Part shown: one piece after another, positions 16,150 to 22,033 of the stretch
How the letters are laid out: each line of letters begins with the position of its first letter
Numbering within the stretch: the first letter of the stretch is position 1
Assembly: GCA_963693055.1 (NCBI GenBank)
Contig: OY843751.1
Coordinates: 4,736,001 to 4,800,000 of the forward strand
DNA from: a bacterium
GTDB lineage: Bacteria > Zhuqueibacterota > Zhuqueibacteria > Residuimicrobiales > Krinioviventaceae
Length of the DNA stretch: 64,000 nucleotides
Reading direction: 5' to 3'
Position numbers and translations under genes: made by a program
The notes under the pieces: model-generated
Databases searched by the model: none
Told to the model about the DNA's origin: nothing
What the model saw: only the letters and a program-made list of their open reading frames with translations

Positions 16150-16268
16150 ATTTTAAAAATATCACTTTTTTTTATATTTATTTCTTGTATATTAACTTTA
16201 TATATGCTTTTTCTGTCTTTTTGAGGAGATTCTTCAAATTGGATCACAAACGACAAGGTACAAATGAT

Positions 16269-16874
16269 ATGACTCTGGGTGACCTCCTCGACAACTGCAC
16301 CAATCCCAACTCCCCTGTTTGGGAAAAAAGCTGGCAGGAATTCCTCAACCGTTACCAAAATTTTATCTACAAACTTGTTCTGAACCGCTGCAAAAGCTGG
16401 AATTTGCAGCGTATTAAATACCAGTTGCAAGATGAAGTAGACGATATTGTATTTATTGTTATAAAACACCTCATTAAAGACGACTATCGTTTTTTAAAAC
16501 AATTCCAAAACCGTGACAACCCACAGCTTTTTCTGTTATATCTGTCTACCCTTATTAACAGAATTACAAGAAGACATCTGGCAATTCATTTTAACAAAAT
16601 CCTGGATACCCTTGAAGAAGATCAGGCAAAAGACACCTTGAAGGAATTATCACCCGAGGCGGGTTGGGAAATTTATGAAGAACTGGTACAAAGCCTTCGC
16701 AATAGCATGATTAACAAACATCCCAATAACGAACGCAACATACACCTCTTTCTAATGTATACTTGGACAGATATGTCGATTGATATGCTTACCCACAATG
16801 ATTTTTACAAACCAATGGGGCAAAATGCCATATATACATTAATAAATCGCATGAGAAACAAAATAAAAGTGTAA
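16269..16874 (+). CDS. ECF-type sigma-70 family factor (201 aa)
   Basis: Region-2-like WQEFLNRYQNFIYKLV...EVDDIV...DDYRFLKQF...FLLYLSTLINR; region-4-like ERNIHLFLMY...NAIYTLINRMRNKIK. ATG 16269 preferred over GTG 16119. Confidence 0.72.
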   Translation: MTLGDLLDNCTNPNSPVWEKSWQEFLNRYQNFIYKLVLNRCKSWNLQRIKYQLQDEVDDIVFIVIKHLIKDDYRFLKQFQNRDNPQLFLLYLSTLINRITRRHLAIHFNKILDTLEEDQAKDTLKELSPEAGWEIYEELVQSLRNSMINKHPNNERNIHLFLMYTWTDMSIDMLTHNDFYKPMGQNAIYTLINRMRNKIKV

Positions 16875-16934: not shown

Positions 16935-17345
16935 ATGAGCAGTAGTATAATAGTTCATAAACTTTCGATAGGCAAAGTTTTATCTATAATTCAAGATGCC
17001 CAGATTAAAGAAAAAAGTTTTTTAGAGAATTATCCGGAATCTATAAATTATTACAATAGTTTAAAGGCCCGTTTCAACAAATTTGAAAATGACCCCAATC
17101 TCACAAATTCGATATTCAACAGTATCCCGAAGCAGTGTTGTCAGGCCAACAAATCCTTTTTGAAAGATAATGATGATTTTTTTATCGCATATACTGTTCT
17201 ATCAAAAAAGGAAGACATTCACATTAACAATGCTAAACAGTTTATTCATCATTTAAATAACTGCTATTGGTGTTTCATAGAATATAACCAGTTTATAAAT
17301 GATGAATATTTTACCAACAAAGGACTTGAGACGGGGGTAATTTAA
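16935..17345 (+). CDS. Soluble protein with a zinc anti-sigma-like HxxxCxxC motif
   Basis: HLNNCYWC plus upstream QCC; no TM segment; directly follows the sigma gene. Confidence 0.65.
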   Translation: MSSSIIVHKLSIGKVLSIIQDAQIKEKSFLENYPESINYYNSLKARFNKFENDPNLTNSIFNSIPKQCCQANKSFLKDNDDFFIAYTVLSKKEDIHINNAKQFIHHLNNCYWCFIEYNQFINDEYFTNKGLETGVI

Positions 17346-17346
17346 T

Positions 17347-18456
17347 ATGCGTAAATTTAAAATAACATTTGAACAAATTCTGGAATATATAAAAAATCCA
17401 GATACTCAAACAATAACCATTAGTGAGCTCAAAGAAAGCAACCCTGCTTGTTTTTCTCTTTTCACTATGATAGATAACAGTCTGAAACATGCGAACCTGC
17501 AAAATATTGACACAGAAAACACCAATACGGGATATCAGGAACTCGAAATGATAATTCTTGAACAATTGAGTGGCAATATTACCAAGCACAACTCTGAAAG
17601 ATTTTTATCTCTCATTACCAGTCATCCTGATTATTTTAGAAGAATTCTGGATACCTTTGACACGGAATCCATTCAGGCAGCTTCATTGGAAAATATTGAA
17701 ATTGCAGATAATAACACTTTGTTTGAAATAATTAAAGGCCATGAAAGCAAAAAAGAAGCTGGTAAATCATTCAGCCTTTTACATTTTAAATCAAGTTTAA
17801 AAAGCTTTTTCCAAAACCTTTTTATGCAAAAAAAGCCTCATTATGCTTTAATCTCCATAGTTGTTTTGATCTTTTCCATTATTACATCCAAAACTTTTTT
17901 TCAGGAAACTGCTCACAATCCTGTTTATACAAAATATTTCCAATCAGCCAATTTACCTTGTGAATATTACGAAACCTCTACCAGGGGCAATAGTGTATCG
18001 TTAGATACAGACACTCAATATAACAAGACACTCAATCAGTATAAATTTGCAATGGCAGATTATATCCAAAAAAATTATCAAGATGCAAAAAAATCACTCA
18101 ACTCAATCATAACTGATATTGAATCCGGTTCTACGCAATCTTTGCACACTACTACAAATGGTAAACAACTGTTAAGAGATATTTATTTTTATACAGGTAT
18201 TTGCGATCTGGCACTTGCCGGAAAATCGCTTGACACCTCTTTAATTGAATCTGCTTCTGACAGATTCAATTCTGCAAAAAAACTGGTTCTTGAATCCAAC
18301 ATGAAAGGAGGTGACAGAGAATTCTTTTTCATGGGTTTAACTTTTAACCTGCTGGGGAACGATTCGCGCTCGCTTGAATATTTGGGGAACATTCAGGAAA
18401 ACAGTATCTATTACAGAGACAGTCAAGTTATTGTATCACAGCTAACGAACCCATAG
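17347..18456 (+). CDS. Single-pass membrane anti-sigma-like protein with extracytoplasmic TPR-like helices
   Basis: ~165-aa N-domain, TM YALISIVVLIFSIITS after KK, then AMADYIQKNYQDAKKSL and FFMGLTFNLLG TPR-like segments; starts 1 nt after the previous stop. Confidence 0.65.
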   Translation: MRKFKITFEQILEYIKNPDTQTITISELKESNPACFSLFTMIDNSLKHANLQNIDTENTNTGYQELEMIILEQLSGNITKHNSERFLSLITSHPDYFRRILDTFDTESIQAASLENIEIADNNTLFEIIKGHESKKEAGKSFSLLHFKSSLKSFFQNLFMQKKPHYALISIVVLIFSIITSKTFFQETAHNPVYTKYFQSANLPCEYYETSTRGNSVSLDTDTQYNKTLNQYKFAMADYIQKNYQDAKKSLNSIITDIESGSTQSLHTTTNGKQLLRDIYFYTGICDLALAGKSLDTSLIESASDRFNSAKKLVLESNMKGGDREFFFMGLTFNLLGNDSRSLEYLGNIQENSIYYRDSQVIVSQLTNP

Positions 18457-18466
18457 GAGACAACGA

Positions 18467-18631
18467 ATGGAGTTATTTTACCTGTTAATGTCTGGTGTTG
18501 TTGCAGCTGTTGCCAAAAGGCTAATTGATATAAAAAGCACCCAAATGGAAACCGGCATCATTCAGCCCCAAGGAGGAGATGATCCTGATCCGCCGCCACC
18601 ACCACCAGACCCTCCAGATCCTAATTGCTAA
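18467..18631 (+). CDS. Unannotated 54-aa peptide MELFYLLMSGVVAAVAKRLIDIKSTQMETGIIQPQGGDDPDPPPPPPDPPDPNC
   Basis: AGGAGA RBS at 18455-18460, 6 nt before the ATG; fills the space between the upstream stop and a terminator. Confidence 0.75.
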   Translation: MELFYLLMSGVVAAVAKRLIDIKSTQMETGIIQPQGGDDPDPPPPPPDPPDPNC

Positions 18632-18638
18632 TTTATAT

Positions 18639-18668
18639 GGTCCTGCCTTTGTTATGCAGGGCCTTTTT
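18639..18668 (+). terminator. Intrinsic terminator after the peptide gene
   Basis: GGTCCTGC-ctttgttat-GCAGGGCC-TTTTT. Confidence 0.7.
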
Positions 18669-18684
18669 CGTTAAAACCTGCCTG

Positions 18685-18714
18685 TTGCATTTGAATATTT
18701 TTTGATATATCTTG
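18685..18714 (+). promoter_or_regulatory. Putative housekeeping promoter for the CHAT gene
   Basis: TTGCAT-N17-TATCTT(G). Confidence 0.45.
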
Positions 18715-18742
18715 TATATTAAAAAATATTGTATCTGTAAAA

Positions 18743-21700
18743 ATGAAAAAACTACTTTCAACATTACTCCTCTTTTTATCAAGCTGTCTTGTTTTTGCAA
18801 ATCAAGATAATCTGGAATATTATACTTTTCTCAAAACCCTGCAAAGTCTTCCAGACAGCACACAACTTGAACACACTTTGAATTATTTATATGACCATCC
18901 TGACGTTTGGAAAGTATATGAAAAAGCATATAGATTGTTTGTATACACGGATCAAAAAGACAAGGCATACACCTTTTACAAAAACCTGGCAGACGACAAA
19001 CGATATTCTCTCTATGCAAATTTATACCTTGCAAAACTAAACAGAGAAGACAATAAAATTGATATTGCAAATCAGCACCTGGTATCCGCATTTGAAATAG
19101 GGCCAGACTATTATATAATCTCAGAATATGCAAAAAATCATACCGAATCAATTGTTATTGATTCAATAATAACAAGCCACGCAGATAACAGCTCATTATT
19201 AATAGTAAATGCCTTGAGAAAATACTACAAGGGAAATTACGCAAAAGCAATTCCCCTATTCAAACAAATCCCACAATTAAACAGCAATCTGAACTTACAG
19301 TTTATGCTTGGTTATTGTTACACGCTTTCGAACCAGTATGAGCAAGCAGATTCGGTTTATGACGAAGGATATAAAGAAGCAATAAAACAAAAAAATATTG
19401 ACGGCCAAATAATTGCTTTACAGGCACTTGGTAAATTGGCCATTGCCCAGCACGACTTGAATAATGCAGAAATATTATTGAATAAAGCCTTGAAAGTATC
19501 TGACGATATTATAGACTATAGGCGCAAAATAACCACTTTAAATGAACTGGGCAATTTAAAACTGAAACAGGGCAAATTAGATTCAAGTATGGTGTATTAC
19601 AATCTTGCTCAATCCTATTCCGATAGATTCAAAGGGAAAATTCAACTTGCCCAGATCCTGAGAAATGGATACAATTACCATCTTAACCATCAATTCTCTC
19701 AAGCCATTCAGTGCTACAGAAAATCAATTGAATTGATAGACCCAAACGACCGGAACCATCAATTGCGAATTAAAAGTCTGCTTGTAACACTTTATGAACG
19801 CTTCGGTATGAGCAGTCTCATGGACCAAATGCTTGCTGAATGTAAAGTGTTAGCAAATGATAACAATTACACCAGTACAAAAAAATGGGTAGAACTTCAG
19901 GAAATAAAAAACCAGCTGTCATTAGACAAAATAGACACTCAAAGGGAAAAACTGTTTGAACTATATAAATATTATAAATCATCAGAAAATGCAAATTTAT
20001 ACAGTTGTCTGAATACACTTGCATATTCTTTTATTATTGAGCTTGATTATAAAAAAGCACAAACATTTTATCAGCTAGCGCTTTATGAGGCAACCAGAAC
20101 AAACAACCAGAGCAAAAAAGCATATTACCTAACCCGCCTCGCATTTATGAATATCAAAATTGGTGAAATAAACAACGCCATGGCAAGGCTAGACTCGGCA
20201 AAACAAATAATTGCCAGAATTGATGATTCTTATATGTCCAGATATGTTTTTAGAGTAACAGGGCTTGCTTTTGAAAAAACGGCCAACACTGATAGCGCAC
20301 TGTACTATTATTACAAGGCAATACCACATACAGAACAGCTTCGTAATAAACTATCGGCAGAAGATCTAAGAATTGGAGCATTCTCAAGTGATGCCGCTAT
20401 TTACAGAGGAATTGCCCGCTGCTATTCACTAAAGTATGACACAACCCATGCCCACTCTTTATTAGATAGCCTGTATAAATACGAAGAAAGCTTTAGAAGC
20501 CGTGCCTTAAAAGACAGAATGGATGATCGCAACATTCTTTCCGGCTCTGTCAAACCAACTAAAAAATACAAGCAAGCAATGGCAATGATTGCAGGCTTGC
20601 AACAAAAGCTGCGAAAACAGGCAGGAACAAAACATTCCGAATCTGAATGGGACCAGTTGATGGGCGATCTTGAAACTGCAAAATACACATTAATTCAGCA
20701 GCGTTTATTCATGATAGACAGCTTAAAAATCAGTCAAAGCATGAATCCCGGAACATCTGCAAATTTATCTGAAATACGCAAACAACTAGAAAAAAATAAT
20801 GCGGGCATGCTGCAATACCACATTGATACTGAGACATCTTTTGTTCTGGTTGTAACCCCAGATACAACCCATATAGTGCAGCTTTCAATCACTCAAGATT
20901 CACTTTCAATGAAAATAAAAAAGTTAATGTCTCCATTGCACAATTTGCAAGATCAAAATCACAATATCCCATTTTTTGCCAAAACAGCACATCAACTTTA
21001 TGCGGAAATATTAAATCCGATTGAAAAAGAGATCAGATTACCAGAAAACCTGCTGATCGTTCCAGATGGCCCCCTAATGAACCTTCCCTTTGAGATGCTT
21101 CTTACCCAAAAACCAAACAAGGCCGCTTTTACCCCCTTTGATGAACCCGACTATAGCAGTTCTTTTTTACTGAACCATTATTCATTATTCTACAGTCCTA
21201 CGGGTATTGTATTAAAAAGTTCTGGCTTGAAATTACTCAACAGGCCCAATATGATGGTTTTTGCAAATCCTTTTTCAAATGAAGATGAAATTTCAGACAA
21301 TGTATTACAATACCGTTCACGTACCGGTTGGAATTTTCAGGCCCTTCCCTTTGCAGAGCTTGAAGCAAATGAAATATCAAAATTAACAAGCCGAGTCAAA
21401 CTCTATAAACGACAAAATGCAATAGAAACATATTTTACCCAAGATGCATCAAAATTTGACATTCTCCATCTTGCTACTCATGCTTTTGTTGACACTTCTT
21501 TTGAAGCTTTTTCAGGTCTCATTCTTGCCTCAGAACAGGACTCTACGAATGATGGAATTTTAATGGGCTATGAAATAGGGAATCTTGATCTGAATTGCGA
21601 ACTGGTTACACTGAGCGCTTGCGAAACCGGTAGAGGCAAAAACATTGCTGCTGAAGGCATATTGGGATTACCCCGTTTGTTCATGGGGGCAGGAGCCAAA

Positions 21701-22033
21701 TCTGTACTCATGTCACATTGGAAAGTTGACGACCGGTTCACATCAAAACTGATGCCTCTATTTTATCAATATTATTTAACTAAACATATGGATAAAGCAG
21801 ATGCGCTTGCAAATGCCAAGAGAGATTTGATCAAATCATCGCAAGAAATAAATGGAGAGCATTACCAGCACCCCTTATACTGGGCAGCATTTACCTTGTA
21901 TGGAAATCCTGATAAAATCACAAACACATCACCCATTTTACCAGCAGCAATATTGGGTTCAATTTTTATTTTTGCGATACTTGGCGGGGCTGTAATTAAA
22001 AAGAAAAAAAGCATAAAAAAAGCGGACATTTAA
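18743..22033 (+). CDS. TPR-CHAT domain protease (caspase-like, clan CD), exported, with C-terminal membrane anchor
   Basis: Signal peptide MKKLLSTLLLFLSSCLVFA; TPR array; LLIVPDGPLMNLPFE, LHLATHA (His), VTLSACETG (Cys), SHWKVDD, HPLYWAAF; C-terminal TM followed by KKKK. Confidence 0.92.
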   Translation: MKKLLSTLLLFLSSCLVFANQDNLEYYTFLKTLQSLPDSTQLEHTLNYLYDHPDVWKVYEKAYRLFVYTDQKDKAYTFYKNLADDKRYSLYANLYLAKLNREDNKIDIANQHLVSAFEIGPDYYIISEYAKNHTESIVIDSIITSHADNSSLLIVNALRKYYKGNYAKAIPLFKQIPQLNSNLNLQFMLGYCYTLSNQYEQADSVYDEGYKEAIKQKNIDGQIIALQALGKLAIAQHDLNNAEILLNKALKVSDDIIDYRRKITTLNELGNLKLKQGKLDSSMVYYNLAQSYSDRFKGKIQLAQILRNGYNYHLNHQFSQAIQCYRKSIELIDPNDRNHQLRIKSLLVTLYERFGMSSLMDQMLAECKVLANDNNYTSTKKWVELQEIKNQLSLDKIDTQREKLFELYKYYKSSENANLYSCLNTLAYSFIIELDYKKAQTFYQLALYEATRTNNQSKKAYYLTRLAFMNIKIGEINNAMARLDSAKQIIARIDDSYMSRYVFRVTGLAFEKTANTDSALYYYYKAIPHTEQLRNKLSAEDLRIGAFSSDAAIYRGIARCYSLKYDTTHAHSLLDSLYKYEESFRSRALKDRMDDRNILSGSVKPTKKYKQAMAMIAGLQQKLRKQAGTKHSESEWDQLMGDLETAKYTLIQQRLFMIDSLKISQSMNPGTSANLSEIRKQLEKNNAGMLQYHIDTETSFVLVVTPDTTHIVQLSITQDSLSMKIKKLMSPLHNLQDQNHNIPFFAKTAHQLYAEILNPIEKEIRLPENLLIVPDGPLMNLPFEMLLTQKPNKAAFTPFDEPDYSSSFLLNHYSLFYSPTGIVLKSSGLKLLNRPNMMVFANPFSNEDEISDNVLQYRSRTGWNFQALPFAELEANEISKLTSRVKLYKRQNAIETYFTQDASKFDILHLATHAFVDTSFEAFSGLILASEQDSTNDGILMGYEIGNLDLNCELVTLSACETGRGKNIAAEGILGLPRLFMGAGAKSVLMSHWKVDDRFTSKLMPLFYQYYLTKHMDKADALANAKRDLIKSSQEINGEHYQHPLYWAAFTLYGNPDKITNTSPILPAAILGSIFIFAILGGAVIKKKKSIKKADI

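Follow-up and report, generated by a model that had tools for sequence, protein, structure and literature searches.

The 64,000-nucleotide stretch of bacterial DNA analysed here (the window) holds, between the gene of a membrane-spanning TPR protein and that of a TPR protein with a caspase-like CHAT domain, an open reading frame of 54 residues, which raises the question of whether so short a frame is a gene and what its product could do for the two large proteins beside it. A sequence-only reading had taken the frame for a hidden peptide precursor, cleaved behind a Gly-Gly pair to release a 17-residue peptide that would be ligand, inhibitor or substrate of one of these two neighbours.

A conserved micro-protein gene

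18467..18631, + strand: gene of the 54-residue micro-protein (the slot gene), with an ATG start, recognized from the sequence, the orthologue L004 and a public gene call
18455..18459, + strand: Shine-Dalgarno site AGGAG, overlapping the stop codon of the TM-TPR gene, 7 nt 5′ of the ATG and identical in L004
18572..18628, + strand: acidic polyproline tail G36-C54, the selected element, with 19/19 identity and 10 synonymous changes relative to L004
18639..18668, + strand: intrinsic-terminator-like hairpin (8 bp) with a U-tract, found by folding and kept in L004
18664..18738, no strand assigned: gap before the CHAT gene, with about 40 nt identical in L004 and then an AT-rich inverted repeat at 18685-18738

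The C-terminus of the translated protein reads QPQGG-DDPDPPPPPPDPPDPNC. The orthologue L004, from a sister species in the same genus (genome G001), retains the start, the stop and the length of the frame. Twenty-one codons differ between the two, 13 synonymously and 8 non-synonymously; every one of the eight non-synonymous changes falls within codons 16-35, and all ten changes in codons 36-54 are synonymous, leaving the tail residues unaltered. One antisense frame is likewise synonymous at 10 of 10 changes because the wobble positions are shared, yet in the window a stop codon interrupts it there. On the codon comparison and this stop, the frame was judged to be neither non-coding nor of antisense origin. 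Genome-wide, 9 of 42,151 short ATG-initiated ORFs have at least seven prolines among their last 20 residues, and the 54-residue frame is, by eye, the sole one of the nine with an AGGAG-type site; the public protein collection already contains it as a called gene (P0007). The hidden frame proposed earlier is a real protein-coding gene, conserved in L004, with selection acting on its tail.

The surroundings were also described correctly by the sequence-only reading: the strong ribosome-binding site is the AGGAG lying 7 nt before the ATG, the terminator is the predicted hairpin with its U-tract, and the adjacent CHAT gene begins 111 nt past the stop. The hairpin has a z-score of -3.8, equalled by 1 of 200 shuffles, begins 7 nt past the micro-protein stop and ends about 75 nt short of the CHAT start. 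The inverted repeat just 5′ of that start has a z-score of -5.1 and is kept only in part by L004; the gap at 18664-18738 is a possible promoter or operator of the CHAT gene's own.

A predicted sigma-factor switch

16239..16874, + strand: divergent sigma-70/ECF-like gene, with a likely TTG start after GAGGAG and an in-frame ATG at 16269
16935..17345, + strand: 136-residue soluble protein with H-x-N-x-C-x-x-C, invariant in an alignment of 14
17347..18456, + strand: single-pass TM-TPR protein, a putative anti-sigma factor, with the R213 codon at 17983-17985
18743..22033, + strand: 1096-residue TPR-CHAT protease with a signal-like N-terminus, a TPR solenoid, a CHAT domain (H913, C960) and a C-terminal TM anchor

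The same gene order recurs in KSB1, with a divergent sigma-like gene, a zinc-motif protein, a TM-TPR anti-sigma, a variable slot and an exported TPR-CHAT, and together these genes are predicted to form a sigma-factor switch. The first gene gave no direct HMM match, but a profile of its 54 homologues aligned with eight sigma factors occupying the same slot, two of them checked as canonical ECF (hhalign 88%, E 3e-6), and weak matches to sigmaE region 2, together with a weak Sigma70_r2 match in 3 of the 54 members, also point to a sigma-70/ECF-like protein. The 136-residue protein had no match in Pfam or NCBIfam searches; its invariant motif, which we take to be of the ZAS-like (zinc anti-sigma) pattern, suggests a zinc anti-sigma-like role, and homology between it and the TM-TPR anti-sigma was not detectable. 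This stand-alone protein accompanies the divergent sigma and is absent from loci with a canonical ECF sigma in that position (L049, L062, L132, L137, L143); it may represent a co-regulator or an anti-sigma domain that became separate.

The TM-TPR protein, whose profile matches 50 of the 167 genomes of the phylum, is TPR-like in its C-terminal part (best E 0.02), and an N-terminal H-x3-C-x2-C is present in 2 of 13 aligned homologues. Position 213 is arginine in 62 of 69 homologues and is followed by glycine or serine in 61 of 69, giving the pattern [L/F/T]-R213-[G/S]. In the AF2 model the TM helix spans residues 165-185, residues 199-222 are non-helical and pLDDT drops below 50 at 212-216, which places the arginine, by prediction, in an exposed loop on the periplasmic side, close to the membrane. 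This loop is likely the site at which CHAT would cut, and an RseP-like M50 protease is encoded in the same genome. In family f1 the locus usually adjoins nadA.

The identity of the CHAT domain is clear from Pfam (E 5e-60), from a His-Cys dyad intact in 43 of 43 members of its subfamily, and from an AF2 model (pLDDT 91.6) whose fold matches are separase, DdvA (8rot, E 1e-13) and Csx29. Terminal hydrophobic segments predict a periplasmic location, and in every mapped KSB1 locus CHAT is a gene separate from the anti-sigma. A second CHAT of the same genome (2,814 residues with two CHAT domains, G000:C1 at about 5.784-5.793 Mb) is of a different, widespread type, with no such peptide upstream. At L046 (5895-12861, G014) two full-length TPR-CHAT genes stand in tandem behind one peptide gene, and at L145 (G010) and L242 (G143) stops interrupt the CHAT gene and the peptide gene is intact.

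A portable tail linked to CHAT

Related loci were compared by a fixed tail score with a threshold of 0.64, applied to all ORFs ending at most 900 nt upstream of a CHAT gene; 11 loci were dropped for short upstream DNA, and CHAT ORFs below 800 residues were left out. The threshold was reached upstream of 20 of 41 CHATs of the same subfamily, compared with 2 of 83 CHATs outside it and 3 of 800 background genes from the window's genome, counts that are descriptive rather than equivalent to a p-value because the score was devised post hoc and the genomes are kin. These 20 tail genes are positional equivalents at related loci, of the kind that the sequence-only reading had proposed to look for. The 21 of 41 below the threshold include the slots of family f11, the loci of G127/G128, one masked ORF (L049), a Gly-rich tail that has a single proline (L150) and the tandem second CHAT of L046. 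Of 13 sigma/anti-sigma modules that lack an adjacent CHAT within the stretch fetched, none scores as high as 0.57, 4 of the 13 being near a contig edge or carrying other cargo, and by eye no convincing small acidic or proline-rich gene was seen at 81 loci of more distant CHATs (other subfamilies, mostly outside KSB1).

Typically 3-30 nt separate the anti-sigma stop from the start of the peptide gene. Of 29 slot genes, 14 have a hairpin behind them, compared with 2 of 145 shuffles, and these hairpins begin 10-37 nt from the stop codon. In genus g27 the module is split: the peptide gene precedes orphan CHATs (L063, L242, L243), and behind the CHAT-less sigma/anti-sigma pairs (L141, L148, L156) lies either an unrelated gene or no tail gene. 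Because the peptide gene normally abuts the anti-sigma gene and is often hairpin-separated from CHAT, its staying with CHAT is informative, and it amounts to essentially one event in one lineage. In another split module (G127/G128) no peptide was found next to either half. By genomic position, the tail genes are linked to this CHAT subfamily rather than to the TM-TPR gene; of the two partners suggested earlier, the TPR-CHAT protein is thus favoured by the g27 split and the upstream counts, and linkage to the TM-TPR protein did not hold. In a quick tree of CHAT the slot type tracks clades, but this was not counted as co-evolution because linkage alone would give such a pattern.

An approximate hand count puts small single-TM proteins at 20 among the tail carriers; roughly 12 more have a signal peptide or lipoprotein signal, and roughly 9 lack a hydrophobic N-terminus. 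At L243 a TM form and a signal-peptide form bear the same tail, D-D-P-x-Y-P-P-P-I-P-P-P; L126 has a TM form and a lipoprotein form, and L063 a remnant second peptide copy. All 8 matches to a globular domain within the phylum bear the tail, each directly before CHAT and seven of them rows of the query itself; among wider relatives of the domain 30 of 137 are tailed and 107 of 137 fall under the threshold. Judged by these carriers, the tail is a portable module on unrelated proteins.

The slot has several further occupants. The globular domain is an unnamed unit of 150-200 residues with 137 representatives (L050:4755-5321, L054:938-1534, L138:6085-6663 and L239 at about 1220-1783), found with or without a signal peptide, and its appended acidic Gly/Pro tail often ends in Phe-Pro; the Atlas gave no usable match to it, and Pfam one weak match and no family. 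Another class, mainly in family f11 (L055, L123, L124, L127, L128, L139, L284, L289, L290, L293, L295, L296), consists of signal-less proteins of 90-220 residues in which an N-terminal or repeated R-P-x-[S/T/V] replaces the acidic tail. Tandem-repeat slot genes include an 11-residue acidic Ser/Gly unit in G045 (L125, L051, at contig ends) and a 2-fold acidic Pro unit within one ORF at L144:4551-4808 (G107), an arrangement that suggests multivalent display. In a sub-lineage comprising L069, L070, L088, L089, L153, L155 and L297, membrane proteins of 450-500 residues follow the anti-sigma with no peptide, and a more distant type of CHAT lies further on in at least one.

Predicted membrane anchor and topology

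18473..18514, + strand: hydrophobic segment (residues 3-16) with Lys/Arg behind it, an anchor predicted as N-out/C-in and weaker than that of the homologues

The hydrophobic stretch that had been taken for a leader is present, but it is short and has Lys/Arg behind it, so a membrane anchor fits better than an export leader. Lys/Arg follow the TM segment in 20 of 20 small TM homologues and precede it in 3 of 20. According to the positive-inside rule, membrane proteins keep such basic residues in the cytoplasm, and their position mostly after the helix predicts an N-out/C-in orientation. The segment of the window protein has a Kyte-Doolittle sum of 31.6, compared with 45-82 in 16 TM homologues from other genera, and with so short and weak a helix the topology is less sure in the window species. 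The tails resemble one another more in composition than in any fixed motif, PPP being missing from L047, L131, L145 and most globular-domain tails, and by eye 29 of 41 carriers appear to face the cytoplasm. The product is predicted to be a membrane-anchored micro-protein with a single anchor.

A candidate activating ligand of CHAT

The acidic, proline-rich tail likely controls the neighbouring caspase-like protease. How it would do so is less certain, and the tentative first choice is that the unprocessed tail is the activating ligand of the predicted periplasmic TPR-CHAT, with cleavage of the anti-sigma at Arg213-Gly and release of the sigma-like factor as the proposed outcome. In this scheme the tail would bind the TPR solenoid of CHAT without Gly-Gly processing and activate the protease; the activated CHAT would cleave the TM-TPR anti-sigma at Arg213-Gly; the RseP-like M50 protease would make a second cut, as proposed likewise for DdvA in the available text of PMC11506125; and the sigma-like factor would be released. 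A ligand of CHAT is supported by several observations: the tail is under purifying selection while the linker drifts, tail genes lie upstream of same-subfamily CHATs far more often than of other CHATs or background genes, the tail gene stays with orphan CHAT in g27, the tail is portable between carriers, and the anti-sigma offers a separate candidate cleavage site with an M50 protease present. A peptide-activated site-1 protease has a precedent in AlgW, whose activators are the C-terminus of MucE and mislocalised proteins (available text of PMC8545111), and the signal of DdvA has been proposed to be a protein (available text of PMC11506125). The AlgW/MucE/MucA and DegS/OMP/RseA systems differ from the window in using a PDZ-bearing serine protease of the HtrA kind and a C-terminal motif that is short and aromatic (PMC8545111), where the window has a caspase-like TPR-CHAT and an acidic proline tail whose activating role is putative.

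The topology conflict, with the tail in the cytoplasm and CHAT in the periplasm, is the main weakness of the ligand reading: because basic residues follow the helix in all 20 small TM homologues and 29 of 41 carriers appear to face the cytoplasm, direct contact needs an extra step. The 21 of 41 same-subfamily CHATs below the tail threshold also weigh against it, as do the likeness of the tails in composition more than in motif and the origin of the split evidence in essentially one lineage. In the window species the N-out/C-in anchor would normally keep the tail hidden in the cytoplasm, and the tail would meet CHAT only upon inner-membrane breach or cell lysis, unless the topology prediction is wrong. 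In other species, exported copies would then be an amplifying or cell-to-cell form. An activator is favoured because either location suits it: hidden in the cytoplasm it would report damage, and in exported form it would amplify the signal. An inhibitor would be sensible only in the periplasm; the preference for activator over inhibitor derives solely from this topology argument. Carried further, and at this point rather unlikely, the arrangement would be a compartment-breach tripwire, with the ligand on the cytoplasmic face, a protease that fires upon membrane rupture (phage lysis or pore-forming attack) or on kin debris, exported copies that spread the alarm, and the tail as a portable address tag.

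Alternative explanations

The strongest rival is a cis-acting stalling leader of the CutF/MifM type, in which the tail would pause the ribosome and, with the hairpin, tune read-through into CHAT or its translation, so that the destination of the protein would be irrelevant. This is possible, though unlikely. It accounts as well as the ligand does for a tail that is always C-terminal, in the gene just before CHAT, whatever the localisation of the carrier. The window protein has the expected C-terminal proline-rich motif behind a TM segment, the distance from TM segment to PPP is about 20-35 residues in several homologues, and hairpins follow nearly half of the slot genes counted above. CutF itself combines an export signal, a C-terminal PPP and a stem-loop that controls the next gene (bioRxiv 10.1101/2025.02.05.636593, in the text available), and the micro-protein gene shares with CutF/MifM-type genes an N-terminal export or TM segment, the C-terminal motif, a hairpin and a downstream gene. 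However, the micro-protein has no metal motif, the terminator-like hairpin behind its gene ends well before the CHAT start instead of covering it, and the geometry across loci is not fixed, with the hairpin 10-37 nt from the stop and the CHAT start anywhere from about 20 to 794 nt downstream. PPP is absent from the tails listed above, L144 repeats its unit twice inside one ORF, the RNA of the tail is saturated with synonymous changes, and EF-P is present.

A second, rather less likely alternative is a subunit like YhdK, in which the helix would pack on the TM segment of the anti-sigma or on the CHAT anchor, and the cytoplasmic tail would contact the sigma, the zinc-motif protein or the N-domain of the anti-sigma, so as to assemble the switch or keep it off. 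YhdK of Bacillus subtilis (sigM-yhdL-yhdK) is likewise a small membrane protein, last in a sigma/anti-sigma operon, and full YhdL activity needs it as a second membrane protein (PMC6827917, in the text available). The predicted C-in topology and the tight coupling to the anti-sigma gene suit such a role, and at L311 a tail-less TM protein sits immediately behind the anti-sigma. The YhdK system has no CHAT, however, and the window gene type goes with CHAT rather than the anti-sigma when the module splits in g27. The tail moves between carriers, including signal-peptide, lipoprotein and soluble proteins, and it is fixed while residues 16-35 drift.

It is improbable, to a degree beyond the preceding alternative, that the tail is a securin-like inhibitor, filling the active site or an exosite of CHAT with an Arg-free acidic and proline-rich segment whose origin in the sigma operon would give negative feedback. 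Genes of a protease and its inhibitor often remain adjacent, and the terminator would presumably leave the peptide in excess over CHAT. The CHAT fold resembles separase, and the pairing of a TPR-plus-caspase-fold protease with a disordered, Arg-free partner and an Arg-directed substrate site recalls separase and securin, a disordered pseudosubstrate inhibitor turned into a substrate by changing FP to RE (PMC6858450, in the text available). That pair is eukaryotic and cytosolic, no sequence similarity to it was found, and inhibition here is hypothetical. A cytoplasm-facing tail, as most carriers appear to have, cannot guard a periplasmic active site, and tail-less modules retain an intact dyad.

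The micro-protein is very unlikely as a CHAT substrate, one of the roles offered by the sequence-only reading, in which the protease would cut it after Asp or at a basic residue and free the tail as an effector. The genes are adjacent, and caspase-family enzymes can cleave after Asp. The conserved Arg-Gly/Ser site, however, is in the anti-sigma loop, there is no arginine in the window tail, the slot peptides have no conserved P1 residue, and the tail is predicted to lie on the opposite side of the membrane. CHAT specificity does differ among species (PMC11506125, in the text available).

Least credible of all is the double-glycine precursor, from which a peptidase-containing ABC exporter would release the 17-mer as an RRNPP-like signal. 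Although GG stands immediately before the tail in both genomes of the window's genus, it does so in 2 of 20 small TM homologues, with GA in 1 of 20, and the terminal cysteine is retained in the same two; the residues preceding GG differ between the two genomes and presumably do not fit the leader consensus. A search for Peptidase_C39 found none in the organism's complete genome or in any of 18 further genomes of its family (19 in all); it is present in 7 of 14 controls and in 58 of the 167 genomes of the phylum. The window protein had no match among leader and precursor models in Pfam or NCBIfam, and 18 members gave none better than E 0.003 in NCBIfam. RRNPP-type signalling fares no better, since both neighbouring TPR domains lie behind signal-like or TM segments and are predicted to be extracytoplasmic, unlike cytoplasmic RRNPP-type receptors, and neither TPR protein gave an RRNPP family match. 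A cleaved, secreted peptide is probably not what the micro-protein is.

Relation to known systems and significance

By its gene content the predicted switch is a split form of DdvS/DdvA of Myxococcus xanthus, with which it shares a predicted periplasmic TPR-CHAT with a His-Cys dyad, an RseP-type protease in the genome and a zinc motif, and would share an ECF-type sigma, assigned here by profile, next to a putative membrane anti-sigma (PMC11506125, in the text available). In Myxococcus the zinc motif is part of the membrane anti-sigma and CHAT is fused to it, whereas the window has the motif on a separate protein and the KSB1 CHAT is separate, exported and C-anchored. The module here also has an extra soluble zinc-motif protein, a highly divergent sigma and an attached tail-bearing gene; the available text of PMC11506125 contains no partner peptide for DdvA, and the window locus lies stably beside nadA, with no defence island seen. 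In the actinobacterial ECF54 group, ECF sigma genes also neighbour TPR-CHAT genes and proteolytic control has been proposed, but that group has no anti-sigma, its neighbours are subtilase and carboxypeptidase-like genes, and the available text of PMC7826278 and PMC8999054 mentions no peptide. In the literature covered, which largely excludes subscription journals, no description was found of a peptide partner for a bacterial TPR-CHAT/anti-sigma module. The present analysis contributes a KSB1 form that is independent of GG export, a tail that is portable between carriers and linked to CHAT, and an arginine site as candidate point of cleavage.

The activating signal of DdvA has been called elusive (PMC11506125, in the text available). 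The window locus supplies a 19-residue candidate for the ligand, Arg213-Gly as candidate substrate site and a soluble protease domain, which turns the matter into a three-component question. That the tail rides, independently of GG export, mostly on carriers that appear to face the cytoplasm points to damage sensing or to a cis-acting ribosome mechanism, either of which would be new for CHAT systems, and the breach tripwire, if true, would fill in the class of signal still missing for DdvA-like TPR-CHAT sensors.
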